Positions 1-21,350 of a stretch of DNA of 64,000 nucleotides are shown here, in pieces. The translations under genes and the position numbers were made by a program. Within the stretch, counting starts at the first letter, position 1, and every line of letters begins with the position of its first letter. The stretch spans positions 285,332 through 349,331 of the forward strand of contig CAWFML010000001.1 in the NCBI GenBank assembly GCA_963817025.1, given 5' to 3'. The stretch is from Pyrinomonadaceae bacterium (lineage in GTDB: Bacteria > Acidobacteriota > Blastocatellia > Pyrinomonadales > Pyrinomonadaceae). Below the pieces are notes generated by a model. That model had not been told where the DNA came from, ran no database searches, and saw only the letters and a list, made by a program, of their open reading frames with translations.

Positions 1-1195
1 CGAGGTAGGGCAGAAATCTGGGAGTCACGCCGCCCTGAAAAAGTTTGTCCGCGCCGTCCGTGAAGGCCGAAGCATGACTCAGGCCAAGTGTCCGCATGAG
101 ATATTTCTTCACAAAGAGATGCAGGTTCTTCCAGCGATTCGGGACAGGGAGCGCGCTTTCCAGATACCAGAGAAACGGGTCTGGAAAGCCCAAATCTTCG
201 ATAAAAATTCTGTTCTTCTGTGTCGAGTAATCCAATCCGGCTGTGATGTCCGGGCCGGAACCCGGATCGACTTCGCGGTTGGCCTCGAAAGTTCCGGCGA
301 GCAGAAAATCGCCGTTGCCGGAAAACTTTTTGCCGAGCGCGGGACTGAGCCTCGTTAGCGTTCGATGCAGGTCGCGGCTGCGTAAAAGTATTTCGGTCGA
401 GCCGAGCGAGCCGGCAGAGATGATGACTTTGCGCCCTGTGACTGCGCCCAGCTCAAACTGCCCGCGCTTGATGGAATCGAAATGTTTGAAGTGGACGCGA
501 TAGCCGTTCTGCTCGACAGGCTCAAGCGGCTCTATCTTTTCGACCATGTGAAGCGGGTAAACTTCTGCTCCGTTCTGCTCCGCCAGCGGAATGTAGTTGA
601 GGTCTAAAGTGTTTTTGGCGTGGACGTGACAGCCGAGCATGCAGTTGCCGCAATAGACGCAGCCTTCCTGTCGTTGGCCCTGGCGATTGATCTTCTCCGG
701 GCCTGTGTAGACGCAGATGTCTACCAATTCCGCCTTGCGGCCCACGCCCTCTGCCGCAGCCATGAATGCCTGTGTGCGGTTCGGCATATCGAGGTCTACA
801 GGGGGCGTGAGCGGTTTGGCTTCGAGCACGTCTTTGGCGATGTCATAAAACGGATTGAGCACATCACGCTTGACGCCTGCGGGCCAGCGCGCGTCTTCAA
901 AGATTTCTTTGGGCGTTCTGATATGCACATTGAAATAGACGAGCGAGCCGCCGCCGACGCCGCTCGCCTGTATGACATCAATCTTATTGAAGGCGCGATA
1001 ATCCAGCAGGCCGTAGTCCGTATAGTTCCAGAAGGCGCGTGCGACCTGTCCCGTCGTTCTCGGAAAATCCTTGCGCCCCCAACGCTTTCCCCTTTCAAGA
1101 ATGCAGACAGAGCGGCCCGCCTGCGCCAGACGACACGCGTTAATCGCGCCGCCAAACCCCGAGCCGATGACAACCACGTCGTAGATTTCTTTCAT
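1..1195 (-). CDS. GMC-family FAD oxidoreductase (cholesterol/choline oxidase-like), partial: N-terminus in window, 3' end runs off the window start
   Basis: Reverse-strand translation from the ATG at 1195-1193 reads MKEIYDVVVIGSGFGGAINACRLAQAGRSVCILERGKRW... This has the GxGxxG FAD fold and is paralogous to the 8879-10669 product (MDNEHFDAVIIGSGFGGAVMAYRLAEAGLRVCLLERGKAY). The ORF track lacks it because it has no stop inside the window. Confidence 0.8.
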   Translation of the reverse strand, partial: MKEIYDVVVIGSGFGGAINACRLAQAGRSVCILERGKRWGRKDFPRTTGQVARAFWNYTDYGLLDYRAFNKIDVIQASGVGGGSLVYFNVHIRTPKEIFEDARWPAGVKRDVLNPFYDIAKDVLEAKPLTPPVDLDMPNRTQAFMAAAEGVGRKAELVDICVYTGPEKINRQGQRQEGCVYCGNCMLGCHVHAKNTLDLNYIPLAEQNGAEVYPLHMVEKIEPLEPVEQNGYRVHFKHFDSIKRGQFELGAVTGRKVIISAGSLGSTEILLRSRDLHRTLTRLSPALGKKFSGNGDFLLAGTFEANREVDPGSGPDITAGLDYSTQKNRIFIEDLGFPDPFLWYLESALPVPNRWKNLHLFVKKYLMRTLGLSHASAFTDGADKLFQGGVTPRFLPYL

Positions 1196-1265
1196 GCTAT
1201 GTGCCTCGACACTACTGGTGTGAAGTAAGAGGTCTATTCAGTCAGATGAAAGTAGAGCGGCGGTT

Positions 1266-1733
1266 TCAAGCTGCCGTCGCGCCGTATCTGTCTCTCATGA
1301 TTTTTTTGTAAGCCCAGATGAGAAACCAGCCGAAGACCAGATTGCCCGGAGGCGCGATAAACAGCCCGATGCGTCCAATGGTCGTCATGCTCTGGGCCAC
1401 ATACATATAAGTCCAGTCGGAGAACAGCTCAGTCAGGCGCACGCCCGCAATCAGGATCAGCCACCACGGTTCTTTCTCCCACTTAAAGACGGCGATAGCC
1501 TGCAAGAGCGTGAAGGCCACCCACACCGCGCCCGTGCGCTTGAGCAATCCCATCGCGTCAAGGTTGTCGTAATGCACGCCATGAAACGTCATAAACCATT
1601 TGTCTGGATAGAGCAGGCAGGTGGTGGAAAGGACTATGTCCAGAATGACCAGAAAGACGAGCAGGACATAGATAGAAGTTCTCAGTCGTGAGCTAATCAT
1701 CGCAAGAATCCTCCTGACGAAGGTGACGAACAA
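1266..1733 (-). CDS. small polytopic membrane protein (hypothetical), paired with the downstream di-heme cytochrome
   Basis: 155 aa with several hydrophobic helices and no recognisable catalytic motif. Same size, position and orientation as the 3245-3661 ORF, so a likely paralog. Confidence 0.55.
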   Translation of the reverse strand: MFVTFVRRILAMISSRLRTSIYVLLVFLVILDIVLSTTCLLYPDKWFMTFHGVHYDNLDAMGLLKRTGAVWVAFTLLQAIAVFKWEKEPWWLILIAGVRLTELFSDWTYMYVAQSMTTIGRIGLFIAPPGNLVFGWFLIWAYKKIMRDRYGATAA

Positions 1734-1779
1734 AAAGACTTGAACTGTAGCTCTCTTCTCAAAAGGGCTGAAAAGGCCG

Positions 1780-3210
1780 CTATAGTGTTTTCAGAAATTC
1801 GATCAGCGCCTTCTTTTCATCGGGCGCGAGATCAGTGCCCCACAAGTGTCCCTGATTGGAATTGCCCGGAAGGCTCGTGTCATAGAGAGAGCCTCGCGTT
1901 TGGGCTTCTTCTCCGGTGGAAATGAAACCGACTCTCTCCTGATCGTAAACATCATAGCCGCGCCAGAAGAGCTTTGGCCGTTTGTCCTCAGTCTCAAAGA
2001 GATCGAAGAGCGTCGGCACAGAGCCGTTGTGCAGGAAAGGAGCGCGCAGCCATAGACCGTCGAGCGGCACGGAGACATAGCCGTTGGTCTTGCGGAAATT
2101 TTTAAAGCCCCACGCATACTCCGGCTGGTAATTGTTGTAAGCCTTCGCGGCTGCGTCAGTCCACATGTCAACGCGGTGGCGGTCTGTGCCGACAGTCTCA
2201 ACCGCAATCACTTTGCCAGTGCTCTCGCCGCCCGGCGCATGACATGAGGCGCATTGGCGCGCAAAAGTTTCGCTGCCGCGCTTCGCCAGTTCCTGATCGA
2301 GGGCAAAGGGATATTTCGGCGGCTGTAGCTCTGTTATCCAATCCTGCATGCGCTTCAGGTTTTCGCGCTCGATATATTTGTGCGTCGAGCCGTCGCCGAT
2401 GGCCGAACTCAAAACCACTTCATCCACAGAAGTGTTCAGGCCGTCCCAGTGAAAAGACATTCCATTCTGCTGCCGCAGCTTCTGATTCCAGAGCGGAACC
2501 ATATCGGAATTGCCGATGGTGTTATCCATTGGCTGTTTGAGAATGCCGAACTTGATCGGATTGAAAGGGTCTATGCGGCCATGTCCCCAGTTGGGGCGCG
2601 AGTCCATCCACGCGAACTGCGCTTTCTGTTTGAGCAACGTCTTCTGCGTCTGCGGGATGAGCACGTAACGATAGAGCAGCCGCTCGACAGCCGAGAGCTT
2701 ATAGACGTTATCTATCTCGGCCATGATGTTGTCCGCGTTAAAGCGCGGGTCGCTGGCGCACGCATAGAGAAAGCGCACATAGCCCTGCGGGTCGAACTGG
2801 TGCGACGGGCCAGCGGGCACGATGGTCGGTTTATCTCCGGGCTTCATGCGATAGGTCGCCGTGTGACAGAAGGCGCAGTTAAGGGCCACGCGGTCAAAGC
2901 CGATGGTCTTTTTGGAAAAGCCCACGGGCAGCTCAACGCCTTCTTCCCAGACGAGGCCGAGCGAGGCATAGCCGCCGAGGCCCGGCAGCTTTTCGGGAAA
3001 CATGCGCGGCAGGACGAGCCAAATCCAGTACGGGATGCCGTCAGTGTTTTCGTTTCCGAGCGAGCCGTACTTGAAATTATTTTCCGCAGAGGCTTGATGC
3101 GTCTCGACCGTGCGGAACAGGTAGTACCAAGCCATCAAGCCGACGACGCCTGCGAGCAAGACCACGACGACCAACAGCTTTAGAAGAAATCTGCGCGTTG
3201 CTCTTCTCAT
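1780..3210 (-). CDS. membrane-anchored di-heme c-type cytochrome, cytochrome c peroxidase/MauG-like (quinol-peroxidase-like)
   Basis: 476 aa with an N-terminal TM helix and two CXXCH motifs (CAFCH, CASCH). It has the C-terminal motif RAPFLHNGSVPTLFDLF, which resembles the conserved APYFHNGSVxTLEE of bacterial di-heme CCP/MauG. It is a strong paralog of 3697-5163. Confidence 0.65.
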   Translation of the reverse strand: MRRATRRFLLKLLVVVVLLAGVVGLMAWYYLFRTVETHQASAENNFKYGSLGNENTDGIPYWIWLVLPRMFPEKLPGLGGYASLGLVWEEGVELPVGFSKKTIGFDRVALNCAFCHTATYRMKPGDKPTIVPAGPSHQFDPQGYVRFLYACASDPRFNADNIMAEIDNVYKLSAVERLLYRYVLIPQTQKTLLKQKAQFAWMDSRPNWGHGRIDPFNPIKFGILKQPMDNTIGNSDMVPLWNQKLRQQNGMSFHWDGLNTSVDEVVLSSAIGDGSTHKYIERENLKRMQDWITELQPPKYPFALDQELAKRGSETFARQCASCHAPGGESTGKVIAVETVGTDRHRVDMWTDAAAKAYNNYQPEYAWGFKNFRKTNGYVSVPLDGLWLRAPFLHNGSVPTLFDLFETEDKRPKLFWRGYDVYDQERVGFISTGEEAQTRGSLYDTSLPGNSNQGHLWGTDLAPDEKKALIEFLKTL

Positions 3211-3244
3211 AAACTTTGAAACCTACCTTTCGGCTTCTCAAACC

Positions 3245-3661
3245 CTAGCTCCACTTTTCGGTCTTAAAGGCAAGGTACAAAAGAATCGCTTCCGGGATGG
3301 CGAATGCGAGGTCAACGATGCCGAAGGGCATGATGTACGTTCGCGGGAAACCGAAAAAGAGGTAAGCCGACCAGAAAAAGATTGTGCCCGCCAGACGCGA
3401 GAAGATCGCCAGATAAGCGTTCGCGCGGTAGTGATACGGATTCATCGCCGCAGGGATATAAAAGAGCGTGAGCTGGCCCAGCAGGAAGACCGAGCAACGT
3501 ACCCAGATGGGCGTGTTGGTCGGGTCCAGATTGAGAAAGGCCAGCACGCGATGCGGCACAATCATCGTCGGGAGGATGAACATGAAATTAGCGATGATGC
3601 CCAGCCACACTACGCGGCCAAACCAGATCGCATACTTGTTCGTCGGTCGCTCAATCTTCAT
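3245..3661 (-). CDS. small polytopic membrane protein (hypothetical), paralog of 1266-1733
   Basis: 138 aa and hydrophobic. It occupies the same slot upstream of a di-heme cytochrome paralog. Confidence 0.55.
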   Translation of the reverse strand: MKIERPTNKYAIWFGRVVWLGIIANFMFILPTMIVPHRVLAFLNLDPTNTPIWVRCSVFLLGQLTLFYIPAAMNPYHYRANAYLAIFSRLAGTIFFWSAYLFFGFPRTYIMPFGIVDLAFAIPEAILLYLAFKTEKWS

Positions 3662-3696
3662 CGGTCGTGTCTCCTCGAAAAGTCGGGAATCACCCT

Positions 3697-5163
3697 TTAG
3701 AGCTTCTTGATATATTCGACCAGCGCGTCCTTTTCTTCCGGCGTCAGCTTTGTGCCGTAGAGATGGCCCGTGTTGCTGTTTCCCTGCAACGCCGTATCGA
3801 ACTTGAAGAACCTGTGGCCGTTTTCTTCCGCGACGTTTGTCACAAAGCCGAGCTTGATCTGATCGAAAACGTCATAGCCGCGATAAAATTCTTTGGGACG
3901 GTTCTCAGGAGGCTCAAGCAAATCTCTCAGGGTCGGCACAGAGCCGTTATGCAGAAACGGAGCGCGCAGCCACACGCCGTCAAGCGGCATGTTGGCGTAG
4001 CCGTTCGTCTTCCTAAAATGTGAGAAACGCCACTCGTAACCCGCATACAGCGTGTTCTGATTCTCAAGCAATTCATACGTGTATGAATCAAGACGATGGC
4101 GGTCTGTTTGAATCTCTTCAATCGGCGTCACCTTGCCGACCTGCGCGCCGTCAAAGGCATGACAGCCCGCGCAGTTCTGTTGCCAGACCGTTTGTCCCTT
4201 TGCCGCCAACGCTTCATTGACCGGATACGGGTAAGGCGGCGCGGGCAAATCCCAGAGCCATGTTTCGATACGTTTCAAGCGATCAAGGTCAATCGTCGTC
4301 GGCGTCACGCCCGCGCCTAAGGAGGCGGATTTGTTGCGCTCGACCACGGAAGTGTTGTTGCCGTCCCAGTGAAGCTGCATCCCTTCGCGCGGTCTCTGAT
4401 GCCAGATGACCGGCAGGTCAACCGTGCCGATGGTGTGGTCTTTCTCCATCGGAAAATTGAATTGCAGAGCTTTGTATGGATTAAAAGTGTCCACGCGGCC
4501 CGGCCCCCAATCGGGGCGCACATTCATAAAAGAAGTGCGCCGCGCCTGTTCCGTCAAAACCTCGCGCGTGCGCCAGACGGCCTCTCGATACATCAGCTTT
4601 TCAATCGGGTTGAGGCTGGTGCGCTGCGCTATGGCCTGCATCACATTGTCCACTGTGAAGCGCGGGTCTTGCGCCGCTCCATAAAGAAAACGCGCGTAGC
4701 CCTGTAAATCGAAATTGTTGGCGGGCATGCCGAGGATGATGCGCGGCTTGCTCTGCGCGGTGTCGCGCACGGTTCCCGTATGACAGAGCGCGCAGTTCAT
4801 CCCGACGCGGTCAACCAGCACGCGCCGGATTGAAAAGCCTATCGGCGTATCCTTGCCCGGCTCTTCCAACAAGCCGAAACCGGCATAGCCTTTTCCGGCG
4901 ACAGGCAACTTGTCTGGAAACATGTCCGGCATCACTTTCCAAATCCAGTAGGGAATGCCGTTGGCCGGTTCGCTGCCGATAGAGCCGTACTTGAAATGCT
5001 CGTTGATGTCAGGGTAGTCAACCGCCGCGCTCCCGACCGGAATAAGCTTCCAGAAGAGATAGGTGACGATCATCGCCAGCACGAAGAGGACGATGAGCGT
5101 CCATTTGCCGAATCTCTTGCGTTCGGCAAGCTCGACGGGTGTTAGTGGGTCTTGATCTTTCAT
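3697..5163 (-). CDS. membrane-anchored di-heme c-type cytochrome, CCP/MauG-like, paralog of 1780-3210
   Basis: 488 aa with an N-terminal TM helix, CALCH and CAGCH motifs, and RAPFLHNGSVPTLRDLL. A GGAGG ribosome-binding site precedes the ATG. The N-terminal region HFKYGSIGSEPANGIPYWIWKVMPDMFPDKLP aligns with NFKYGSLGNENTDGIPYWIWLVLPRMFPEKLP in the paralog. Confidence 0.65.
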   Translation of the reverse strand: MKDQDPLTPVELAERKRFGKWTLIVLFVLAMIVTYLFWKLIPVGSAAVDYPDINEHFKYGSIGSEPANGIPYWIWKVMPDMFPDKLPVAGKGYAGFGLLEEPGKDTPIGFSIRRVLVDRVGMNCALCHTGTVRDTAQSKPRIILGMPANNFDLQGYARFLYGAAQDPRFTVDNVMQAIAQRTSLNPIEKLMYREAVWRTREVLTEQARRTSFMNVRPDWGPGRVDTFNPYKALQFNFPMEKDHTIGTVDLPVIWHQRPREGMQLHWDGNNTSVVERNKSASLGAGVTPTTIDLDRLKRIETWLWDLPAPPYPYPVNEALAAKGQTVWQQNCAGCHAFDGAQVGKVTPIEEIQTDRHRLDSYTYELLENQNTLYAGYEWRFSHFRKTNGYANMPLDGVWLRAPFLHNGSVPTLRDLLEPPENRPKEFYRGYDVFDQIKLGFVTNVAEENGHRFFKFDTALQGNSNTGHLYGTKLTPEEKDALVEYIKKL

Positions 5164-5204
5164 AAAGGAGAAGCCTCCCTGTAGATAAGCTTTCCGGCCT
5201 GCCT

Positions 5205-5339
5205 GTCAGAACCGCGAGCGAGAGCAAGGATGAAGGATGAAGGCGGAAGGATGAAAGGCAGGCCGTTCAAACATGAACCACTCAACTTTAAATAGCATGC
5301 TCTTCATCCTTCATCCTTGCTCTCGCTCGCGGTTCTGAC
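5205..5339. repeat. palindromic intergenic repeat, GGATGAAGG family (copy 1)
   Basis: Inverted arms gtcagaaccgcgagcgagagcaaggatgaaggatgaagg and ccttcatccttcatccttgctctcgctcgcggttctgac. A second copy lies at 58629-58743. Confidence 0.8.
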
Positions 5340-6667
5340 TTAGTGATAAGCGGGCGTGCCTTCAAAGACGGTCATGATCTCCTTAATCATCCGGTCATAG
5401 TCGCCGTCATAACGCGACAGCTCGTAACAGCCGAGCGGGTCAGAAATCGCGTGTACCAGACACTTGTTGCAATAGGTGCAGGGTTTATCAGGCAAGTCTT
5501 TGCCGGAAGCGTAGATGTGTGCCAGGTCGTTATTCGCCACCAGCGGGCGCGCGATGGCGACGCCGTCACAGTAGCCCTCTTTAATCACCTTGCGTATATA
5601 CGAGGCCGTCTGAAAACCGCCTGTGCAAAGCACAGGGACTTTGACGTGCTTCTTGATCTCGCGCGCATCGCCGACGCTGATGCCTTCGATGATGTCCGGC
5701 TTGGTGCGGTTCCAGAGGAAATTAAAGAAGGGACGGAGCAGCCTGTAGCGAAACAACAGGAAATTGCGAAAGCCGTACACGCCGCTCGGAATCATGCCGC
5801 CGTAGGTGCGCGCGGCGTGCTCAAGCGGAAACGGGCCGGGCGGGTTCAAGGGATGCGGAAAAGTGCTGCCGCTCGAAACATGTATGGCATCGGCTCCGGC
5901 CTCTTCGACCATTTTGGCAATCGGAATCGTGTCGTCCAGCGTGTTGCCCTTCTTCTCCCAGAAGGCGAGCGCGTTGTTGTGATCCACTGCGCTGAGCTTG
6001 ACCTGAAAGTGGAAATCATCGCCGACCGCGCTTCTGACCGCGCGCATGATTTCGAGCAGGAAGCGCGCACGATTTTCCAGCGAGCCGCCGTATTCGTCTT
6101 TGCGGTTGTTGATGCCCGAGCTTAAGAATTGATTTATCAGATAGCCGTTGCAGGCGTGTAGTTCTACGCCATCCAATCCGGCAGCTTGTGCGCGGCGCGC
6201 GGCGTCGCCAAACTGCCCGACGACCATCTTGATTTCATCGCGCGTCATCGCCTGACACAAGAGGCCGTGAAAAGAGTCTGTCGTGTCGGTCGAGCTTAAG
6301 GCTCTGTTGAAAGAGTTCTCGACGCCGCCGACATCTCGCTGGCGGCCTCCGTGGCTGAGTTGCATGATGTACTTGCAACCGTACTCATGCACCTTCTCTC
6401 CAACCCTGCGCCAGAAAGGAATCTTGTCGTCGTGGTCTATGAAGGCGTAGTTCGGCAGGATACGCCCGCGCGCACTGATGGGCACATGCGAAGAGATAAT
6501 CGCGCCGACGCCGCCGCGCGCAAATTTCTCTTCCCAGTTGATGCGCGCCTGCGTGCCGATGCCGTTGTAGTAATCGAACCTGCCGGAGATATTCGAGCGG
6601 AAGATACGATTTTTCACCGTGAGGTTGCGAAACTGTAAAGGCTCGAAAATGACATCCTGCTCTGCCA
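5340..6667 (-). CDS. Old Yellow Enzyme family NAD(P)H:flavin oxidoreductase (2,4-dienoyl-CoA reductase-like FMN domain)
   Basis: TIM-barrel OYE hallmarks (e.g. HACNGYLINQFLSSGINNRKDEYGGSLENRARFLLEIMRAVRSAVGDDF). The likely true start is MAEQDV at 6667, preceded by a GGAGGA ribosome-binding site; the longer ORF-track start at 6824 runs into a repeat element. Confidence 0.8.
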
Positions 6668-6727
6668 TGACTCCGTTCCTCCTACTCGTCTGAAAATTTC
6701 CGCCTGCGGGCCAAACAAGAGCGTTGA

Positions 6728-6832
6728 ACCAGATGTTCTTTGCGGCGCTTTGCGTCTGTTCTTCTTTGCGGTTAAGAGTTTTTTTTAACGCAAAGGGCGC
6801 GAAGTATTTTCGCAAAGAGCGCAAAGATTATT
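6728..6832. repeat. palindromic repeat, GCGCAAAG family (degenerate copy)
   Basis: ctttgcggcgctttgcgtctg...cgcaaagggcgcgaag...cgcaaagagcgcaaag, imperfect inverted CTTTGCG/CGCAAAG units. Confidence 0.6.
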
Positions 6833-6878
6833 TTCTGTCGTGACTGCTTCCATCTCCATTATGTGAGTCGCCTGCGCT

Positions 6879-7775
6879 CTAGTGACGCTCCGCCTTCAAC
6901 TGCGCGTCCACAGCCGCGCGGTCTGGCGGCGTGAGCCAGACTTCGCCGAGGCCGAGGTTGACGACGCTCTCCAAGCCTTCGGGCGCGTGTTGCGGGGCCT
7001 GTTCGTAAGTGACGAACCAGCTCTCGCAGTAATCGTCGAGCGTGCCGTTGGTGCTTGGGAGAAATGCTGTAAAGACAGGGTCTTTGCTGATCTCAAGCTC
7101 TTTCAAGGGCTGCATCAAAGGGTGGCCGCCAAGAGTCAGTGTGGCCGCGCCTTTTTTGAATAAAGAGAACCCCACCTTGCTTTTGAAATAAATGCGCGAG
7201 CGCATCAGCATCCCGCGAAACTCGCAATAGTTAATCGCGCCGATGTTGAGCGGCATCCATGCTTTGCTTGGTCGCTCGATGTCAATCCGCATGGCAAACT
7301 GCCCGTCCTTGTCATACTGGCTGCTGACGATTTTGTCTGTGATGACGAAATCCAAGTTGGCCTGATGCTTGGGCATGCCCCAGATGCCTTTGCCGCCTTT
7401 GACGGAAATCTCCGTGCTGACGGGCAGGTCTATGACGTACTGGCCCAGACCGTAGTGCGTCCAGAAGAGCGCGGGAACGAAACGCGGCGCAGCCTTGCGC
7501 CCGTGCGTGCAGGCGATGGCGATGCTGAACTCTATGTATTTGCCGATGACCGTGTTGACGTAGTTGATGACGGTGATGACGAGCAAGCCTTCGTTCCACA
7601 GGCGATAGGGATAGACCTCGTTGCCCGGCATCAATTTTTTGGCTTTGTCTGCATTGATCTTAAAGACAGCGAAGAGCGCAGGCGTCTCGTGACACGCAAT
7701 CGGCAGGTGATACGGGATGTGATCCACCAGCGAATAACGGCCCGACTGTCTCTTTAAACGTCCAGGCATTCCCAT
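6879..7775 (-). CDS. hypothetical protein (possibly acetoacetate-decarboxylase-like fold; unverified)
   Basis: 298-aa ORF in operon context with good coding potential. I recognise no unambiguous motif. Confidence 0.45.
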   Translation of the reverse strand: MGMPGRLKRQSGRYSLVDHIPYHLPIACHETPALFAVFKINADKAKKLMPGNEVYPYRLWNEGLLVITVINYVNTVIGKYIEFSIAIACTHGRKAAPRFVPALFWTHYGLGQYVIDLPVSTEISVKGGKGIWGMPKHQANLDFVITDKIVSSQYDKDGQFAMRIDIERPSKAWMPLNIGAINYCEFRGMLMRSRIYFKSKVGFSLFKKGAATLTLGGHPLMQPLKELEISKDPVFTAFLPSTNGTLDDYCESWFVTYEQAPQHAPEGLESVVNLGLGEVWLTPPDRAAVDAQLKAERH

Positions 7776-7787
7776 AAGAAATTTCCT

Positions 7788-8882
7788 TTAGTTGTCTTTA
7801 TCCAGTTCCGCCACCAGTCGCGGGAAGGTGTCTTGAGCCGCGTTGCGGCCCATAAAAACATCCAGATGGCCGTAGGTCTCAAAGACATGATGCGAGTGAT
7901 AATTCTTGCGCTGTTTGTCGAAATACTCGAAAGTCCTCGCCTGACTTTCCGGCAGAAAGCAGAGATTCTTTGCGCCCGCGAAAAAAGCAAAGCGCGCATC
8001 CGTCTGCGGCGGCTGGGCCGTAAAATCCGCTGGCAGTTCTTTCTTGCCCTCGACGGAAATCAAGTTGCCCTTGCTGACACAACGCGCCATCTGCTTAAAG
8101 AATGTGATGGGAACTTTGGCAAACTCGTGCTTGAGCCATTCGTGCGTCTCGTCGTTCAGATTCTCGTGTCGCCACAAGGCCGGAAAGCCGCTCCCGTAAG
8201 TAAAACTCACCTGCTTGCAGACGGCGTTATCGCACTCGTGATGCGTCAGCTTGACGAGCAGGGAAATCATCTTGGCCGCGAAGGTCGGAGCGTTCAAGCC
8301 CCATTGCGGGTCGAGATAATCCGTCATCAGGCCAATCATCGGGACGGCGAGTTTGAGCTTTGTCGCAGACAGGCCGGGGACGACCGTGTGCAGAGAGACT
8401 GCGTTGGTGACGATGGTCTTGACCTGCGGCACGAGGCCCGCCATCGCAGACATCATAAAGCTGGTCGAACCCTGGCAATGAATGACAGCTTTAACTTCAT
8501 CCGCGCCGGTCTCTTTGACAATCGTCCTGATTGCTTCGGGATGGTCATAGATGGCTGCCTGATCCAGCGTCCAGTGGTTCGGCTTGAGATCAATGCTCGC
8601 GCGCCAGTTTTCCATCCACACGTCATAGCCGTGCTCGATCAGGTAATCAACAAAAGTGGTTTCAACCGGAGCGCGGAACAGGTTGGCGCGCACGCCCGCG
8701 CCGTGCACGAGCATCACAGGGCCTCTGGTCGGAGGCTTTTCTCCCTGCACATGTATCAGGTTGCACTGGAATCCGTCACCGGCTGTGAACGGAACTGTGC
8801 GCTCCGTGTAATTCCTCTTGCCCTGTAGGTCTTGAGATACTGCTTGTGACATTACTTCTCCTTGCAAAACTTCTCTTCTCAT
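7788..8882 (-). CDS. alpha/beta-fold hydrolase (esterase/lipase-like)
   Basis: HGAGVRANLF oxyanion-hole region and an HCQGS (GxSxG-type) nucleophile elbow. Its start overlaps the upstream gene's stop (ATGA), implying translational coupling. Confidence 0.7.
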   Translation of the reverse strand: MRREVLQGEVMSQAVSQDLQGKRNYTERTVPFTAGDGFQCNLIHVQGEKPPTRGPVMLVHGAGVRANLFRAPVETTFVDYLIEHGYDVWMENWRASIDLKPNHWTLDQAAIYDHPEAIRTIVKETGADEVKAVIHCQGSTSFMMSAMAGLVPQVKTIVTNAVSLHTVVPGLSATKLKLAVPMIGLMTDYLDPQWGLNAPTFAAKMISLLVKLTHHECDNAVCKQVSFTYGSGFPALWRHENLNDETHEWLKHEFAKVPITFFKQMARCVSKGNLISVEGKKELPADFTAQPPQTDARFAFFAGAKNLCFLPESQARTFEYFDKQRKNYHSHHVFETYGHLDVFMGRNAAQDTFPRLVAELDKDN

Positions 8883-10669
8883 GCTCCCTTGCGCTGTGCG
8901 ATGAGATGGTCTGCACAGCGGTCAGAGAATGCGCCGATGGTCAATGAAGGATTTGGCCCGACCGGGCCGGGCATGGCAGAGCCGTCAACGACATATAGAC
9001 CCGGATAGCCGAAGACCTCTCCGTATTGATCCACCACGCCTTGCTCCGGCCCTGCGCCCATCGGCGCGCCGCCGAGAGGGTGAGCCGTCAGGACTTGACG
9101 AAAGAGCGTGTAAGCGGGGTTGTCCAGATATTCCGCGTTCAAGGCTCTGGCGATGGCTTTGCCGACACGCCTCACGCGGTCGAAATAGTCCTTCGAGATC
9201 TTGATCGCCCAATCGCATTCGAGCAGGCCGTCCTCAGAGAGATACAGCTTGCCGTTCGGAATATCACGTCCCATCGTGAGCACCGGGAATGAGCTGACGG
9301 AACTGCTGGCCGGGCCGATCAAATCGGAAATCTCCGCGCTCAGGTCTGCATCATTGCTGAATCCCAAACGATACTTGGCGGCAATCTTGAGAAACTTCAG
9401 AGACCGTTTCAAAAAAGCCGGAAGCCCGGACAATTCCGAAAACCAGCTCAGCAGATAAGGATTGCCTCCATCTTCAGCATAGAAGCCGCGTCCCTGCGGG
9501 CCATCTCCGTCCAGCGTGTCGCCGACACGAATCGCGCTGGTGATGACCGGCCCGAAGCTGGGGTCTAGACGGCGCGGCACGCTCTGGCCGTGCTTTTCCT
9601 CCATGCTCTTGACGATGAACGAGAGCAGGTCGCCGTTGACGCAGAAGCGCGAGCCGAGCGTCTGCATGTTCAGGCGCGGGAAATGTTGAGCCTGATTTTT
9701 TAATAACAGGTGTGGCGTGCCAAACGTCCCGGCGGCGAGTATCAAGCGGTCGCAGGTAATCGTCCCTTCCGGCGGCGGCGGGCACTGGCCTGTCTGCGGG
9801 TCAACCTGTTTCGGGTCGTGCCTGAGAAAGACGACCTTGTATCCTTTGCCGTCGAGTGGCGCGATGGTCTTGACCTCGCACAAAGTTTCCACCTTCGCGG
9901 GGTTCGGCTTTTGATGTATGGCCGCCGTCACGTAAGTGTAGTCGAGCGTGTTCTTGCTGCCGTAGTTACATCCGATGTCACACTCGCCGCAGAGGCGACA
10001 GGTCTGGCGCGGCATCTCGCGGCCAGCCATTACCGCATGATAATTCGGATAAGGCTCGTCAAGCTCTGCGCCGACGATGGGCGGGTTGGCAGGGTCATCT
10101 TCGTCAGGGTTGCTGACATGCTTGCGTTTGAAGCTGACGGCCAGATTGAGCGGCAGCCACCTGTGCGTAGAGTTATCGTCGAGCTGCATCTTCCGGTCTG
10201 CTTCGCGCATTGCCAGAGTCTTTGGCGTCGCGTCATAGGGCGGATGACTCAGCGGGTACTTCTGCACGTTCATCATTTTCTCGACACGCCCGTAGTGCGG
10301 TTCGAGGTTATCGTAAGTGATGGGCCATGATTCGGTGACGCCGCCCTCTGTCTCGTCCTTGACGAACCACTTCGGGTCTTTGCGAATCAGAATATTCGCG
10401 TAGATGAGCGAGCCGCCGCCGAGACCGCTGGAGATGAGCGCGCCAGACCCCTTAAACGACCAGACATCGAACATGCCGTAGAGGCCAGAGGAAGGGTCCC
10501 AGAAATTTTTTCCTAAATCATAAGGAGCACGCGCAAAGGAATTTGGCGGATAGGCTTTGCCGCGCTCAAGCAGGCAGACTCTCAGGCCAGCTTCCGCCAG
10601 GCGGTAGGCCATCACCGCGCCGCCAAAGCCCGAGCCGATGATGACCGCATCGAAATGTTCGTTGTCCAT
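8879..10669 (-). CDS. GMC-family FAD oxidoreductase (cholesterol oxidase-like), full length
   Basis: 596 aa. N-terminal DAVIIGSGFGGAVMAYRLAEAG Rossmann FAD motif and overall GMC architecture. Paralog of the partial gene at 1-1195. Confidence 0.8.
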   Translation of the reverse strand: MDNEHFDAVIIGSGFGGAVMAYRLAEAGLRVCLLERGKAYPPNSFARAPYDLGKNFWDPSSGLYGMFDVWSFKGSGALISSGLGGGSLIYANILIRKDPKWFVKDETEGGVTESWPITYDNLEPHYGRVEKMMNVQKYPLSHPPYDATPKTLAMREADRKMQLDDNSTHRWLPLNLAVSFKRKHVSNPDEDDPANPPIVGAELDEPYPNYHAVMAGREMPRQTCRLCGECDIGCNYGSKNTLDYTYVTAAIHQKPNPAKVETLCEVKTIAPLDGKGYKVVFLRHDPKQVDPQTGQCPPPPEGTITCDRLILAAGTFGTPHLLLKNQAQHFPRLNMQTLGSRFCVNGDLLSFIVKSMEEKHGQSVPRRLDPSFGPVITSAIRVGDTLDGDGPQGRGFYAEDGGNPYLLSWFSELSGLPAFLKRSLKFLKIAAKYRLGFSNDADLSAEISDLIGPASSSVSSFPVLTMGRDIPNGKLYLSEDGLLECDWAIKISKDYFDRVRRVGKAIARALNAEYLDNPAYTLFRQVLTAHPLGGAPMGAGPEQGVVDQYGEVFGYPGLYVVDGSAMPGPVGPNPSLTIGAFSDRCADHLIAQRKGA

Positions 10670-10727
10670 GATGAAGCAAGCCTTTCTCTCTCACCACTAA
10701 GAATTTGATTCGCGTGCTGGCTGACCA

Positions 10728-12719
10728 TCAAGCTTCGTGCAGGTGCGAGACGCTCTCGACGCCTGTGTGCGTGCCCGCTTTCTTTAAAATGACAGGAGGC
10801 TCTATCAGTTCCGGCTCGGTGGCGCGCGGGTCGTCGGAGACAAGAGCAGGGCGTTTGTCGTCTGCATCCGGGCGCGGCTTCCACTTGCGCGGCACGCGCC
10901 TGATGCCAATCGGATAGATGGTCAGGCTTCCGTCTTTATCTATGTGCAGCCTGAGCGTGTTCTTCCAGTCTTCGACGGCAATCGAAGAGAAGGCTTCGTT
11001 TGAATGTCTCCCGAAGAAGTTCATGGACAAGAGCAGATAAAGCCCCATCACGAGCGAGCCGAAGACAAAGCCGCCGAGCAGAATCAGCACAGAGACCAGC
11101 AGCATGCGCCAATCAAGATGAAACTCATAGTTTGCCAGAGACACCTGCGAGACCCATGCGAGCGATGAAATCTTCGACACAAAGGAGACGGCAACGATGG
11201 CGACCCCGAACGCAGCCAGAATGTGCGCCACCCCGTGCAAAGAACCCATGATGCCCCTGTAAAGTCTGGAGCGGGTGTCCGTGAAAAAGACGAAGGCGGC
11301 GAGCGTCAGCACGACCAGAAAAGAGGTCACGGAGCTATCGAGCACGCTGTAGAGAGCGGTGCTGGCAATCGTTCCTAGATCGTAATTGAGATGGCTGAAA
11401 CGCCAGTAGCTATCATCTATCCGGGCGACGACAGAGAGCGTCATAACCAGATACAGCACAGCCGTCACCAGCCCGAAAGTCCAGCTCGCATTCCCTTTCA
11501 GATAAGGAAATATCAGATTGCGCCAGCACAATCGCCGCGACTCTTTTCTTGGCGGGTAGCAGGCTCTGAGCGCGAAGACGCGGTCGTTCATCATCCCGTC
11601 AAGGCTCTTCTCGACAATGACATCAAGCTTTCTTCCCAAATATCCTTCGTGCGTCGGATGCAGGAATGCGCCGCCGCCGCCCGCCGTAATCTTCTGTGTT
11701 GATTGGTCCAGAGATTCATGACGGCGATAATGATGCAGGTCTCCGGCGATAAAGACGGCCACGCCTTTGCCAAGTCTTTTTTCGAGCAGTCTCAGATTGC
11801 TCTCGTTGTAATTGGGTTCGTCCAGTCCTTCAAATTGCGCGGCGCGAATCCAGTGCGGCTCGGCATGACAGAGGATGACGCTCGCGTGCTCATTGGTTCT
11901 AGCCGTCTCCGCCTCCATCTCTGCGGCGAGGCTTCTAAAATATTCGACCTGCGGCCCGTCTATATCCGAGCCGAGTTGCACGTCCGTTCCCAGCAGCCAC
12001 CAGTTGTGCGGGAGTTTTAAAGCAAAGTAACTGCGCGCTTGCTGCGTGCGCCAGCCGGCGAACCAGCGGTGAGAGGTGAAGAGGCGTGTAAAAGCCACCA
12101 GACTGTCATACCAGTCATGGTTGCCGGGAACGGCGAAGACGTGCGGGTGATTGCTGTCCGTGTAACGGAGCGCGGTCTCGTATGGCGCGATCAATCGCTC
12201 GTTGTAAACATCGCGGCTGGCCGTCGGGTAAACCTCGTCGCCGCCAAAGATGAGTATGTCTCCCCTGTGCGTCTCCTCCTGTCGCTGCTCTTTGGTCTGA
12301 GGGTCTGTGTAGGTAAAGGTGCGACCCGTTTCGGCCAGATGATGCGCTATCGCATAGGTCGAGTTCCAGCCGTCACCGACATCGCCGACGTAATCTATCC
12401 AGATTGAATCTCGCGGTCGCGTCGTGTCAGGCGCACAGTCATCCTTTCCATCGTCCCTGTAATGAAAGCTATAGTCATAGAACTTTTCCTGCTCGCCCGC
12501 GCCCATCGCTTCCACCAATCTTCTATCGGAGTGATGACCGAAGATGGTCGAGATGGCGACCTCGATTCCGGTCTTGGCAAGCTGGCGCGGGTCATACCAA
12601 CCAACCATCGGCAGTTGTTTGGGCTTCGGGTGCGGCGTGACTCCCTGAGAGACCGCAGCAGGCGCTGTCGTTATCGACTGACTCACGCTCTCGAATGTTT
12701 GCCCGTTCTGCGTAGCCAT
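10728..12719 (-). CDS. calcineurin-like metallophosphoesterase fused to a C-terminal polytopic membrane domain
   Basis: Metallophosphoesterase motifs GDVGDG, GGDEVY, GNHDWY and HHY in the N-terminal ~380 aa. The C-terminal ~250 aa is strongly hydrophobic with multiple TM helices. It is the first gene of the 12.7-kb minus-strand array. Confidence 0.75.
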   Translation of the reverse strand: MATQNGQTFESVSQSITTAPAAVSQGVTPHPKPKQLPMVGWYDPRQLAKTGIEVAISTIFGHHSDRRLVEAMGAGEQEKFYDYSFHYRDDGKDDCAPDTTRPRDSIWIDYVGDVGDGWNSTYAIAHHLAETGRTFTYTDPQTKEQRQEETHRGDILIFGGDEVYPTASRDVYNERLIAPYETALRYTDSNHPHVFAVPGNHDWYDSLVAFTRLFTSHRWFAGWRTQQARSYFALKLPHNWWLLGTDVQLGSDIDGPQVEYFRSLAAEMEAETARTNEHASVILCHAEPHWIRAAQFEGLDEPNYNESNLRLLEKRLGKGVAVFIAGDLHHYRRHESLDQSTQKITAGGGGAFLHPTHEGYLGRKLDVIVEKSLDGMMNDRVFALRACYPPRKESRRLCWRNLIFPYLKGNASWTFGLVTAVLYLVMTLSVVARIDDSYWRFSHLNYDLGTIASTALYSVLDSSVTSFLVVLTLAAFVFFTDTRSRLYRGIMGSLHGVAHILAAFGVAIVAVSFVSKISSLAWVSQVSLANYEFHLDWRMLLVSVLILLGGFVFGSLVMGLYLLLSMNFFGRHSNEAFSSIAVEDWKNTLRLHIDKDGSLTIYPIGIRRVPRKWKPRPDADDKRPALVSDDPRATEPELIEPPVILKKAGTHTGVESVSHLHEA

Positions 12720-13299
12720 GATTCGTTCCTTCTTAAACGAAGCAAGAAAAAGGTAAGACGCCGCAATGGAAGGAGAAGGATTTCAAAGAGAGAAACCCAC
12801 AAGTAGCTTGACGCTTTTCAGGCTCAAACGGACAGCGAGCGATGCTATCAAAAGAGGCGCTGCGAGGAGATACAAGGCGTGACATACCACGTCTCCCTAA
12901 AGGGTGGATACGTTTCGCTCTCAACCGTTCCCTGAGTACGTTGCCGGTGGCTTGGTATTTTCAATTTCAGCAACAGAGGCTCGATAAACCGACCGGCAAC
13001 CATTGCCACGTTTAAGACGGGAAAGCTTGATTGTTATCTGCCAGCATGTTCATTACCTTGAAACTAAACATTAGAAGGAAGTCTGACCAACATGAGGTCG
13101 TGTTGCGTCCAGTGCGAGAAGACTTCGGCAGATGCGCGTGAATTATAGCTCCGGGCCAAGCTAAGTCAACAATAATTTTGGCGGGAACCCGCAAGAAGAG
13201 TGTTTTACAGTTCCACCGGGATGTCCGTCGCAAGAAATCCGAATTTGGTCTGGCCCGGAACAGCAGATTTCCGGGCCGGACATGTTTATGCGACAGCTC

Positions 13300-14292
13300 T
13301 CAGTTCGTGCCGACCGAACAAGCTTTCCGGGCCGCAGAGATAACTTCCGCGCGCGTCTTCTCTGCGCTGACCCCGGTTGAGAGCGACTCTCTTTTCTCCG
13401 CACGCTTGGGCGATGTCTTGACCAGCGCGACGCCGCACAGGATGATCAACATCGCTGTCACCACACGCCAGCCCAGAGATTCCGAGAGCACAGCCCAGCC
13501 AAGCAGGACTGCGATAATGGGATTGATGTACGAGTACATAGAGACCAGCGAGAGCGGCAGTTTCTGAATCGCATACGTGTAAGAGCCATAGGCCACGATT
13601 GAGCCGAAGACGATCAAGTAAGCGATGGCCGACAGCGACCTGCCGCTGAAATGCATCACACGCCATTCGCCCAAAGTAGTGCCGAGCATCGTCAGCGCCA
13701 CGCCTGCAATGAGCATCTGCACGGCGGCAGCCATCAGCGGCGGCAAATCCGTCTGGTGATGTTTCGAGTACACGGAACCGGCAGACCATGAAGCGCAGCC
13801 AACCTGTATGGCGACCGCGCCCAGCAGGTAATAACTATTGAGCGTCGTCCCAAACAGGTTCGGCGCGATAAGCAGGGCCAGACCGCAGAAACCAATCAAC
13901 AGGCCAACCACTGCGCGGCCACTGACGCGCTCGCCATCGCGCAGGAATCTCTCAAGCCCCACAACCCAGAAAGGAGAAGTTGCGACCAGCAGTGCGGCAG
14001 GGCCGCTCGGAACCCACTGCTCCGCCATCACCACAGCCCCGTTGCCGACGCCCAGAAGCATCAGGCCGATGATGCTCTGATTTAACCACTCTCTGCCCTG
14101 CGGCAGACGCGCCCCCCGCCAGAAATAGACAAACGAAAAGAGCAATGCGCCCGCAATGAGAAAACGCATCCCCGCAAGGAGCATCGGCGGCAGGGTCTCT
14201 AACCCGACGCGAATCGCCAGATAGGTCGTGCCCCAGAAAAAACAGACGGCAGCCCACGCGCCGTATGCTGCAAACTGTTCCCTTCTCGTCAT
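13300..14292 (-). CDS. EamA/DMT-superfamily transporter (putative amino-acid/metabolite exporter)
   Basis: 330 aa, ~10 TM helices, duplicated EamA-like halves. Confidence 0.8.
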   Translation of the reverse strand: MTRREQFAAYGAWAAVCFFWGTTYLAIRVGLETLPPMLLAGMRFLIAGALLFSFVYFWRGARLPQGREWLNQSIIGLMLLGVGNGAVVMAEQWVPSGPAALLVATSPFWVVGLERFLRDGERVSGRAVVGLLIGFCGLALLIAPNLFGTTLNSYYLLGAVAIQVGCASWSAGSVYSKHHQTDLPPLMAAAVQMLIAGVALTMLGTTLGEWRVMHFSGRSLSAIAYLIVFGSIVAYGSYTYAIQKLPLSLVSMYSYINPIIAVLLGWAVLSESLGWRVVTAMLIILCGVALVKTSPKRAEKRESLSTGVSAEKTRAEVISAARKACSVGTN

Positions 14293-14771
14293 AAGCTTGA
14301 CCCCTCCCGCTTGACGGACAAACGCTGAGACTCCTTGACCGTCTTGAGCACGATTGTCGTGCGCGTCGAGCGTATGTACTTAAACTGACCGAACTCCTCT
14401 TTCAGAATCCTGTATAAGTCATCCGTGTCGCGCGCACGCACCTTGACCAGAAAACAATCCTCGCCCGCCAGATGATGCAATTCCAGCACGCTCGGCAACG
14501 CCGCCATCAGTTCGGCTGTCTTGTCGGCTTCCTCTACGACATCGTGTTGCTCATCCACACGCACAAAGATAAAAGCCACCAGCCCCAACCCCAGCGCATG
14601 CGGGTCAACCAGAGCCATGTAGCCCTTGATAAAGCCGCGCTCCTCTAGCTTCTTGACCCGCTCAAGAGTCGCAGAGGGCGTCAGTTCCACGGCCCTAGCC
14701 AGTTCGACATTGGTCATCCGACCATCTCGCTGAAGCAATTCGAGAATTAAAGCGTCTTTTTCATCCATCAT
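14289..14771 (-). CDS. Lrp/AsnC-family transcriptional regulator
   Basis: N-terminal HTH (ILELLQRDGRMTNVELARAVELTPSATLERVKKLEERGFI) plus a C-terminal RAM domain. Its stop overlaps the EamA start (ATGA), a classic Lrp-exporter pair. Confidence 0.9.
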   Translation of the reverse strand: MMDEKDALILELLQRDGRMTNVELARAVELTPSATLERVKKLEERGFIKGYMALVDPHALGLGLVAFIFVRVDEQHDVVEEADKTAELMAALPSVLELHHLAGEDCFLVKVRARDTDDLYRILKEEFGQFKYIRSTRTTIVLKTVKESQRLSVKREGSSL

Positions 14772-15592: not shown

Positions 15593-15640
15593 GACAAGTG
15601 ACGGGTAATCCGGGCCATCGCTCAATATCCGTCACTTGTC
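15593..15640 (+). promoter_or_regulatory. stem-loop between hsp20 and clpB (12-bp perfect stem gacaagtgacgg/ccgtcacttgtc, ~24-nt loop)
   Basis: Seen directly. It lies in the 74-nt hsp20-clpB spacer and could be an attenuator or processing site. Confidence 0.35.
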
Positions 15641-15656
15641 GCAGATCATTGCTTTT

Positions 15657-18251: not shown

Positions 18252-18265
18252 AAGAGGAAGGCGAG

Positions 18266-18712
18266 ATGGCACAGCATTGGGACCCGATACGGGATTTAGT
18301 CACGCTTCAGGAACGCATGAATCGTCTGTTTGAAGACGCCACAGACCGCCGTGCGCGCACGGATGATGAAACCAATGATATAGAGCGCGCGGACTGGACT
18401 CCGGCGGCGGATGTTTATAATCGTGAGACGGAGTATGTCATCACGGTTGACCTGCCGGGCATTGACCGCGAGACGCTGGACATCAGCATTGACGATAATC
18501 GTCTCTGGATTCGCGGCACGCGCTCCATCGAACACGAGGCGCAGCAGAGAGTCGAGCGGCCTCATGGAAATTTCCTGAGAAGGTTTGGCCCGCTGCCGCC
18601 GACGATTGAGCAGCAGGGCGTCAAGGCGGATTACAAAGACGGCGTGCTGAACATCACGTTGCCCAAACGCGCGGAGAAGAAATCCCGCCGCGTGGAAATC
18701 AAAGTTCAGTGA
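18266..18712 (+). CDS. Hsp20/alpha-crystallin family small heat-shock protein (second copy)
   Basis: ADVYNRETEYVITVDLPGIDRETLDISIDDNRLWIRGTR...ADYKDGVLNITLPK. It starts 14 nt after the clpB stop, so it is co-transcribed. Confidence 0.9.
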   Translation: MAQHWDPIRDLVTLQERMNRLFEDATDRRARTDDETNDIERADWTPAADVYNRETEYVITVDLPGIDRETLDISIDDNRLWIRGTRSIEHEAQQRVERPHGNFLRRFGPLPPTIEQQGVKADYKDGVLNITLPKRAEKKSRRVEIKVQ

Positions 18713-18818
18713 CGTATGACAGGCAAGAACCTGTTTTATCTTATCACTCGTCACCTGTCACACGTCACACATCACTATTGTTATGGTATCTTTTCGCAGG
18801 GGGAAAAAGAGAAGCAAT

Positions 18819-19481: not shown

Positions 19482-19482
19482 A

Positions 19483-21253
<1,771 letters not shown>

Positions 21254-21350
21254 AAGGCAAAAGTAAAAAGGTAAAGGGCAAAAGTGAAGATATAAGGACT
21301 TATCAAGGCTGTTCTTCACTTTTGCCTTTTACCTTTTGCCTTCTTACTTA
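21254..21350. repeat. palindromic repeat, GGCAAAAG/GTAAAAG family (copy a), abutting the groEL stop
   Basis: ggcaaaagtaaaaaggtaaagggcaaaagtgaaga ...loop... tcttcacttttgccttttaccttttgcc. Confidence 0.85.

Follow-up and report, generated by a model that had tools for sequence, protein, structure and literature searches.

The oxylipin biology of bacteria is known from a small number of cases: PA2077/78 of Pseudomonas aeruginosa, some lipoxygenases (LOX) and the cyanobacterial 10S-dioxygenase (10S-DOX). PA2077 is an oleate 10S-dioxygenase and PA2078 a hydroperoxide isomerase (7,10-diol synthase); the two are tandem paralogues that were modelled on RoxA, and the characterised members of this clade oxygenate lipophilic chains bearing C=C bonds, polyisoprene in the case of RoxA and oleate in that of PA2077/78 (PMC4496055). 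In the fatty-acid saturation pathway of Lactobacillus plantarum the CLA-DH/DC/ER enzymes, which include an enone isomerase of the acetoacetate decarboxylase (ADC) family and an enone reductase, act on C18 oxo-fatty acids (PMC11719350). Here we analyse a 64,000-nt stretch of DNA from a Pyrinomonadaceae bacterium (contig CAWFML010000001.1; hereafter the window), at one end of which ten genes, g1 to g10 (Table 1), encode two di-haem cytochromes c, cytA and cytB, together with flavoenzymes, hydrolases and small membrane proteins. The cytochromes belong to the RoxA branch of the CCP/MauG superfamily, as compact proteins anchored in the membrane. By analogy with the systems above, the cluster may encode a pathway of oxylipin type, as yet uncharacterised, in which unsaturated membrane lipids (fatty-acyl chains being the likeliest) are oxygenated and the products processed further, a reading to which we would give a probability of about 0.5. 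The type of haem enzyme and the idea of a bacterial oxylipin pathway are known, whereas the anchored family, its set of partners and its breadth are undescribed. The genes form a coherent set and no description of the combination was found in the literature searched, in agreement with an initial annotation of the window that had not recognised it as a described pathway.

Each cytochrome has two CxxCH haem-binding motifs, CALCH128 and CAGCH335 in cytA and CAFCH and CASCH in cytB, and a single N-terminal hydrophobic helix (residues 23-41 and 8-26, respectively). The helix is strongly hydrophobic and has no obvious cleavage site; since it is the only one and follows basic residues, the haem domains should face the periplasm. 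Both proteins contain the C-terminal motif RAPFLHNGSVPTL, which is the P(Y/F)xHNGSVP motif of PF21419, and cytB carries APFLHNGSVPTL. The two haems, the motif and the anchor had already been recognised in the initial annotation. With 46% identity and only g4 between their genes, cytA and cytB are tandem paralogues. Across 70 sequences the cysteines and histidines of the haem motifs are invariant, with H335 at least 90% conserved.

In Pfam, PF21419 ('RoxA-like') is matched at 57.8 bits by cytA and 52.3 bits by cytB against a cut-off of 26.7. The initial annotation had proposed deciding between PF03150 and PF06537; neither matches, PF03150 (bacterial cytochrome c peroxidase (bCCP)/MauG) being absent from the Pfam matches at E up to 0.01. 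Both proteins pass the cut-off of NCBIfam NF040606, 'di-heme-cytochrome C peroxidase' (200.9 bits for cytA and 182.3 for cytB against 150), a subfamily naming model that says nothing of peroxidase activity. The equivalog models for RoxA, RoxB and RoxC (NF050033, NF050034 and NF051462) are missed, at 60-86 bits against cut-offs of 900-1000, and the two proteins are therefore not orthologues of the rubber oxygenases. RoxA (4b2n) is nevertheless the sole solved relative by sequence (profile search, E 1e-17; 17-26% identity) and the only significant Foldseek match (E 1e-13) of an AF2 model built from 70 diverse sequences (pLDDT 95.8, pTM 0.91); a 12-sequence alignment gave a pLDDT of 54 and was discarded. 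The fold is nearest to that of RoxA rather than to CCP or MauG, and the CCP/MauG relation put forward in the initial annotation holds at the level of the superfamily fold only. In the profile alignment to 4b2n, HW266DG falls on FW302DG, which contains the inter-haem W302 of RoxA, and GH467 falls on the GGH of RoxA, in which H641 serves the C-terminal haem as distal histidine. Among the 70 sequences H467 never varies and W266 is kept in at least 90%. The C-terminal haem is therefore predicted to be bis-His, coordinated by H335 and H467 as in RoxA. L282 aligns with RoxA F317, which is thus replaced by leucine in the window protein.

The cytochrome family is large, with more than 7950 matches, 60-65% identity between Acidobacteriota and Cyanobacteria, and 6310 representatives at the 50% clustering level in a profile search. 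In cyanobacterial and other loci the second of the two cytochromes is an orthologue of cytB, 55-63% identical to it. No residues at 85% conservation separate the cytA from the cytB group across all loci, as the groups are heterogeneous.

Several features set these proteins apart from their closest described relatives. RoxA of Xanthomonas sp. 35Y is a secreted protein of ~650-680 residues, whereas cytA and cytB, of 476-488 residues, have an uncleaved transmembrane (TM) anchor and form a conserved pair of paralogues with a small membrane partner and flavoenzymes. The resemblance to PA2077/78 (FadCcp) is indirect, the comparison having been made through published motifs (Table 1 of PMC4496055) and RoxA. 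In both cases a tandem, diverged pair of RoxA-like di-haem proteins is found (43% identity there, 46% here), with the first haem motif at a similar position (H130 there, H128 here), a MauG-type motif and a C-terminal histidine, an orientation towards the periplasm and a fatty-acid context (PMC4496055). PA2077/78 are, however, soluble periplasmic proteins of ~630 residues with cleavable signal peptides, are reportedly confined to P. aeruginosa, and lack partners of the old yellow enzyme (OYE), GMC or 4TM type; the inter-haem tryptophan that is kept in both cytA and cytB is lost in PA2078. Canonical bCCP/MauG proteins differ in that the second haem is His/Met or His/Tyr rather than the bis-His predicted here, and ~160 further residues of cytA and cytB align only with RoxA. 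The initial annotation had likened the cytochromes to quinol peroxidases; these proteins (QPO/YhjA) also have a TM anchor but contain three haems, where there are two here, and the likeness does not hold. Bacterial oxylipin enzymes of eukaryotic type (the alpha-dioxygenase/cyclooxygenase (COX)-like 10S-DOX, LOX and pairs of a dioxygenase (DOX) with P450) are unrelated to the di-haem proteins in sequence.

The ten genes lie in the same direction on the minus strand and their open reading frames (ORFs) fill positions 2-12719, as described in the initial annotation, with the cluster extending beyond the start of the window. That its junctions are short or overlapping is true in part. From the ORF coordinates g9 and g8 overlap by an ATGA at 8879-8882, with g8 translationally coupled to g9, whereas the g6-g5 junction is 176 bp and the g7-g6 junction ~210 bp when the beginning of the OYE is placed at MAEQDV, where its orthologues begin. 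In relatives with 78-87% identity in cytA the order runs on with a further phosphoesterase, the second GMC gene at full length and a small gene or two. The cluster unites two modules, each conserved across phyla: module A (g10-g7), composed of a membrane phosphoesterase, a cholesterol-oxidase-like GMC flavoprotein, an acid-lipase-like hydrolase and an ADC-like protein, and module B (g6-g1), composed of an iron-sulphur (Fe-S) OYE, cytA, a 4-TM protein, cytB, a small membrane protein and a second GMC flavoprotein. As the order of 10-11 genes is kept in relatives with differing flanks, and sub-sets of it are found across at least ten phyla, the arrangement is far beyond chance; the conservation of the neighbourhood, which the initial annotation had suggested checking, is clear. 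One such relative, L090, has other flanks, so that the block of ~11 genes behaves as a unit. (L-numbers denote related loci and P-numbers representative proteins.)

Scanning one genome per species confirmed at least 598 relatives, and 80 loci were retained from these; counts of neighbours use 85 loci. The loci span Acidobacteriota, Cyanobacteriota, Chloroflexota, Planctomycetota, Verrucomicrobiota, Nitrospirota, Myxococcota, Gemmatimonadota and the Alpha-, Beta- and Gammaproteobacteria, and three recurrent layouts were derived by tblastn and clustering of ORFs. The first is OYE-cytA-(4TM)-cytB, often with a GMC gene next, and this core is seen in Cyanobacteria, Acidobacteriota, Chloroflexota, Planctomycetota, Myxococcota and Alphaproteobacteria. 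The OYE gene stands directly upstream of cytA in 43 of the 80 loci, from many phyla (tblastn), and g4 lies between the two cytochromes in ~40 loci. In L001, L006, L084, L085, L089 and L090 a g1 orthologue comes next after cytB and the small protein. On plasmid pRL11 of Rhizobium johnstonii 3841 the order is OYE, cytochrome, small protein, cytochrome, a 929-residue di-haem protein with cytochrome-c matches below threshold only, GMC and patatin; RefSeq names the orthologues 'hypothetical protein' or 'cytochrome c', and the small protein is likewise hypothetical.

In the second layout, found in Beta- and Gammaproteobacteria and Nitrospirota, proteins of ~800 and ~760 residues with two CxxCH motifs each precede cytA-cytB, so that some loci encode four di-haem proteins in a row. 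The ~800-residue family is found alongside the cytochrome pair in 42 loci and the ~760-residue family in 20 (examples are L027 3988-6480, L065 7634-9859 and L082 12438-15227). The 800-residue family has RoxA-type C-terminal motifs, and one representative of each family (L008, L065) belongs to no Pfam family. A fatty-acid cis-trans isomerase (Cti, PF06934) was considered for the ~760-residue neighbours and set aside, since their representative drew no hit in Pfam.

The third layout, seen in Pseudomonas, Ralstonia and others, consists of a fused GMC+hydrolase protein of ~1150 residues, a fused 4TM+cytochrome protein of ~625 residues and a metallophosphoesterase, and separately couples the GMC-hydrolase of module A to the 4TM-cytochrome of module B. 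The GMC+hydrolase fusion is present in seven loci (L068, L073, L076-L079 and L083). A segment like g4 is fused to the cytochrome N-terminus in Pseudomonas, Ralstonia and many representatives of ~620 residues, and is doubled in cytochrome proteins of ~770 residues. In P0254 (1025 residues) an Fe-S OYE, a linker, a TM helix and the di-haem domain form one polypeptide, which implies that a cytoplasmic flavoenzyme and a periplasmic cytochrome can act as one membrane-spanning unit; this type of fusion has one representative only and may be an artefact of gene calling. These fused proteins (GMC+hydrolase, 4TM+cytochrome and OYE+cytochrome) bind the parts of the cluster together. A compact three-gene version lies on the megaplasmid of Ralstonia pseudosolanacearum GMI1000 (L083 4858-11614; ~1,466,358-1,473,114), where it is unannotated in the PLSDB table; its genes encode a GMC+hydrolase protein of 1166 residues, a 4TM+di-haem cytochrome of 628 and a metallophosphoesterase of 395.

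Enzymes of fatty-acid oxygenation are encoded near many of the cytochromes. Within 10 kb of the cytochrome, An_peroxidase is found in 16 of the 85 loci, lipoxygenase in 5, P450 in 6 and patatin phospholipase in 6, and 26 of the 85 have at least one of the four, a count that leaves out the annotated, partly cut Rhizobium patatin, which fell under the length filter. These families are uncommon in bacteria, so that their association with the cytochromes is unlikely to be due to chance. In L085, where OYE, cytA, cytB, a small protein, GMC, a dioxygenase and P450 follow one another on the same strand, the An_peroxidase matches plant fatty-acid alpha-dioxygenase across its full length (E 2e-115). 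In five cyanobacterial loci (L002, L046, L050, L054 and L069) a fixed trio lies downstream of cytB, comprising a lipoxygenase, an ABM-family protein of 100 residues and a saccharopine-dehydrogenase-like reductase. A role as 'catalase-related hydroperoxide lyase' was considered for a 307-residue cyanobacterial neighbour (c16) and the N-terminal domain of P0303 and rejected, there being no Pfam or PDB match and no similarity between the two.

Pfam agrees with the GMC, OYE, alpha/beta hydrolase and metallophosphoesterase identities given in the initial annotation, and names in addition g7, which had been left without a family there. The GMC protein g9 matches PF05199 and PF00732, and its closest solved relatives are the cholesterol oxidases 1coy (E 1e-27) and 1b4v (E 2e-24), although it is far under the cut-off of the cholesterol-oxidase equivalog (174 against 850); g1 matches PF00732 at 3.5e-13 and has partial similarity to the cholesterol-oxidase model NF058674. 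In both the FAD-binding GxGxxG starts at residues 8-12; they have, by eye, no N-terminal signal peptide, and are for the latter reason presumably cytoplasmic. The hydrolase g8 matches PF00561 weakly, just under the cut-off, with gastric lipase and lysosomal acid lipase/cholesteryl ester hydrolase as nearest solved proteins (E 1e-5 to 4e-4). The relatives of g9 and g8 make a lipid the best reading of the substrate, and to this extent the lipid/sterol or alcohol module of the initial annotation would stand, without the H2O2 detoxification with which it had been coupled.

The g7 protein matches the ADC family PF06314 with 48.3 bits against a cut-off of 29.8, over profile positions 20-131 of 238. 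Its GKGIWGMPKH contains, by eye, a GMPK that we take to be the GxPK catalytic-lysine motif of ADC, and phmmer found no solved relative; g7 is a candidate Schiff-base isomerase or decarboxylase. The family has 3044 matches, with over 60% identity across phyla, and elsewhere its gene always follows an alpha/beta hydrolase gene, alongside GMC and patatin genes. Clusters of GMC, hydrolase, ADC, small membrane proteins and patatin occur without cytochromes in Nostoc, a Balneolota genome and a betaproteobacterium; the first gene of the Balneolota cluster is an orthologue of g10 over its full length (35% identity). In one relative with 82% identity (L089) patatin and a third cytochrome come after the g9 orthologue, in place of hydrolase and ADC. 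The same locus encodes, after the cluster (15616-21461), a caspase-like (Peptidase_C14) + Metallophos protein of 1127 residues and a CHAT/TPR protein.

The OYE g6 matches PF00724 at 1e-61 (209 bits) and is nearest, among solved proteins, to YqjM-type ene-reductases and 2,4-dienoyl-CoA reductase. The four cysteines of its CxxCxxCx11C motif, of 4Fe-4S type, are at least 90% conserved in 24 orthologues. At 442 residues it does not have the C-terminal FAD/NADPH domain of FadH-type enzymes, and its architecture is thus a truncated one. In g10, PF00149 scores 26.5 bits against a cut-off of 21.5 and residues 414-569 contain hydrophobic segments. In Pseudomonas, Ralstonia, L084 and L090 the cytochrome has other metallophosphoesterases beside it; to that of Pseudomonas and Ralstonia g10 is similar at superfamily level only (E ~1e-2 to 5e-5). 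Of the small membrane proteins, g4 has no Pfam or NCBIfam family and g2 no match in either. At the same position as g2, L084 has a gene for a 144-residue protein of 92% identity and L085 one for a 140-residue protein of 60% identity. There is no similarity between g2 and g4, so that they are not paralogues.

From the families and folds assigned, the conserved gene order, the fusions and the neighbours identified, we infer a substrate, an order of reactions and a biological role, which would be either the production of signals or the turnover of oxidised lipids. In the oxylipin-type pathway proposed, cytA and cytB would sit at the periplasmic face of the inner membrane, held by one TM helix each and associated with g4. 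By analogy with PA2077/PA2078, one cytochrome would add O2 at a C=C bond or beside it and the other would convert the hydroperoxide; where an alpha-dioxygenase/COX-like enzyme or a lipoxygenase is co-encoded, both may convert its product instead. The resulting (allylic) alcohol would become a ketone in the cytoplasm through oxidation by the GMC enzymes, and the ADC-family g7 would act on the carbonyl through a Schiff base, either conjugating a double bond as CLA-DC does or decarboxylating. The Fe-S OYE would then reduce the activated C=C bond of the enone, and g8 and g10, in whose place or beside which patatin is found elsewhere, would free the lipid or trim it, linking the pathway to complex lipids. 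The likeness to the CLA pathway would lie in the succession of alcohol oxidation, double-bond conjugation by an ADC-family enzyme and enone reduction by a flavoenzyme, for which GMC, g7 and OYE are the candidates here. The two differ in that GMC takes the place of an SDR enzyme, the OYE is not of the CLA-ER family and there is no hydratase (CLA-HY) here; the oxygen, which enters by hydration in the CLA pathway, would be introduced by the haem enzymes.

A number of points weigh against this pathway. Its substrate and chemistry are deduced from 17-26% identity to RoxA and from gene context, and the relation to FadCcp runs through RoxA and published motifs. Neither lipoxygenase nor haem dioxygenase nor patatin genes were found in the 64-kb window, and about two-thirds of the related loci have no such genes within 10 kb. 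With the cytochromes in the periplasm and the flavoenzymes in the cytoplasm, the intermediates must cross or flip in the membrane, and the OYE has no obvious domain for the input of electrons. Modules A and B are also found apart, and their adjacency could reflect functions that are related rather than sequential. It is also conceivable, if rather improbable, that the substrate is an isoprenoid or polyene (a carotenoid, a polyprenol or the side chain of a quinone or hopanoid) instead of a fatty-acyl chain, cleaved by C=C dioxygenolysis of the RoxA type, with GMC, ADC and OYE processing the fragments. The nearest structure is that of RoxA, an enzyme that cleaves poly(cis-1,4-isoprene) to keto-aldehydes (PMC4496055), and the RoxA/B/C models match in part. 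Even so, their equivalog cut-offs are missed widely, cytA and cytB are ~190 residues shorter than RoxA and anchored rather than secreted, and the informative neighbours are fatty-acid enzymes (alpha-dioxygenase-like, LOX and patatin); none of the 85 loci showed genes for carotenoids or terpenoids. OYEs do reduce enals and enones, cholesterol-oxidase-like GMC enzymes act on polycyclic isoprenoid alcohols, and many of the host phyla make carotenoids or hopanoids.

It seems unlikely that the cluster serves instead to repair or detoxify peroxidised membrane lipids, the anchored di-haem proteins acting on the outer side of the membrane as peroxidases of lipid hydroperoxides or H2O2, with electrons from the quinol pool, possibly refilled by the Fe-S OYE, and the hydrolases and flavoenzymes clearing damaged acyl chains. 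PA2078 has been proposed to control hydroperoxide toxicity (PMC4496055), both proteins pass the NF040606 cut-off, and hydroperoxide-forming LOX and DOX enzymes are among the neighbours; the anchor and the often-fused small membrane partner could hold a quinol site, and the fusion of OYE to cytochrome is suggestive of a complex that physically spans the membrane. RoxA, by far the closest structure, is however an oxygenase, PF03150 is not matched, the haems number two rather than the three of quinol peroxidases, and no small cytochrome or cupredoxin donor is encoded. The predicted bis-His ligation of the C-terminal haem, as in RoxA, implies a low potential, whereas the electron-entry haem of bCCP is His/Met. 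The g4 family has no conserved histidine or cysteine, so that a haem-b carrier is unlikely, and g4 was rejected as a transmembrane electron wire for the same reason. The built-in detoxification of H2O2 that the initial annotation had suggested is topologically awkward, because the GMC proteins are presumably cytoplasmic and the c-type haem domains periplasmic. The initial annotation had also suggested a route of electron delivery, and nothing supports a respiratory path from GMC to cytochrome, which leaves this as a minority view. In such a path electrons taken from an alcohol or sugar by a GMC dehydrogenase would reach the cytochromes, as they do in FAD-glucose and fructose dehydrogenases; there is precedent for a GMC protein combined with a small subunit and a membrane-bound cytochrome c, and PDB entries 6a2u and 7w2j match weakly. 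Those enzymes combine an exported GMC protein with a three-haem electron carrier, in contrast to the RoxA-like two-haem proteins here and to GMC proteins that have no Sec/Tat signal by eye and are nearest to cholesterol oxidase, not to sugar dehydrogenases. Modules A and B might also have been juxtaposed without being related, as their separation in other genomes and the internal gaps of 176 and ~210 bp could suggest; this sits poorly with the fused GMC-hydrolase of module A that adjoins the 4TM-cytochrome of module B in Pseudomonas and Ralstonia, and with an 11-gene block that moves whole between different flanks. We regard both the dehydrogenase and the chance juxtaposition as highly improbable. 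Overall, what the initial annotation observed is confirmed and its interpretation partly supported.

More tentatively, and doubtful as it stands, the oxylipin-type pathway may be organised as a membrane-spanning machine, in which periplasmic RoxA-like oxygenases would be physically coupled through their TM anchor and a g4-type partner to the cytoplasmic Fe-S OYE, with which they form one protein in some genomes, and, with the GMC, ADC-like and lipase/phosphoesterase proteins, would make new oxylipins or remodelled lipids. If so, it would be the general bacterial counterpart of the LOX/COX cascades of eukaryotes, extending over more than 6000 sequence clusters and at least ten phyla, and PA2077/78 would be a specialised offshoot. 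If the chemistry is as proposed, the cluster would provide a general bacterial route for the enzymatic oxygenation and turnover of membrane lipids, with a new haem-c oxygenase chemistry and candidate biocatalysts for hydroxy- and oxo-fatty acids. The large, strongly conserved family of RoxA-like di-haem proteins has fixed partner enzymes and informative fusions, and orthologues are found in tractable organisms: R. johnstonii 3841 (pRL11), R. pseudosolanacearum GMI1000, Nostoc, Sorangium and Pseudomonas.

Table 1. Genes of the cluster and the region upstream of it, with positions in the window.
Feature	Position	Strand	Remarks
g1, second GMC flavoprotein, N-terminal 398 aa	2-1195	minus	cut by window edge
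g2, small membrane protein, 155-aa ORF	1266-1733	minus	probably 144 aa with start at 1700
g3 (cytB), membrane-anchored RoxA-like di-haem cytochrome c, 476 aa	1780-3210	minus	
g4, small membrane protein, 138 aa, ~4 hydrophobic segments by eye	3245-3661	minus	
g5 (cytA), membrane-anchored RoxA-like di-haem cytochrome c, 488 aa	3697-5163	minus	
g6, OYE-family FMN enzyme, 442 aa	5340-6668	minus	ORF to 6824; likely true start 6668
g7, ADC-family protein, 298 aa	6879-7775	minus	
g8, alpha/beta hydrolase, acid-lipase-like, 364 aa	7788-8882	minus	
g9, GMC flavoprotein, cholesterol-oxidase-like, 596 aa	8879-10669	minus	
g10, metallophosphoesterase with C-terminal multi-TM region, 663 aa	10728-12719	minus	
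Leader/intergenic region, 580 bp	12720-13299	minus	downstream of EamA gene; holds likely cluster promoter

The 580-bp gap ahead of the cluster that was noted in the initial annotation is real and follows the upstream EamA gene. It contains a sigma-70-like site, TTGACT-16-TATAAT, at 13169-13142 (11 of 12 positions match) and a hairpin at 13248-13281, after the EamA stop codon. The block 13020-13169, which comprises the promoter-like site and ~150 nt downstream, is near-identical in the 87% relative L084, where it is better conserved than the flanking intergenic DNA, and is not conserved in the 78% relative L090; conservation of the leader is restricted to this closest relative. Two tiny ORFs of 9 and 13 codons lie inside the block. 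A riboswitch was considered for the leader and discarded, as there was no Rfam match at E up to 1.

Directly upstream of the cluster, at 13300-14771 on the minus strand, are genes for an AsnC/Lrp-type regulator and an EamA transporter. The pair is kept in L084 and in a JGI contig and is absent in L090, and may be a lineage-specific regulator or exporter for the cluster. A role in anti-phage defence was dismissed, with zero PADLOC hits. Elsewhere in the window Acido-Lenti-1 RNA motifs (Rfam RF01687, 55-66 bits) form two inverted pairs, at 30526-30706 and 51550-51728, in keeping with DNA of acidobacterial origin, and a tmRNA gene on the minus strand at 62074-62466 encodes the tag peptide ANNQELALAA.

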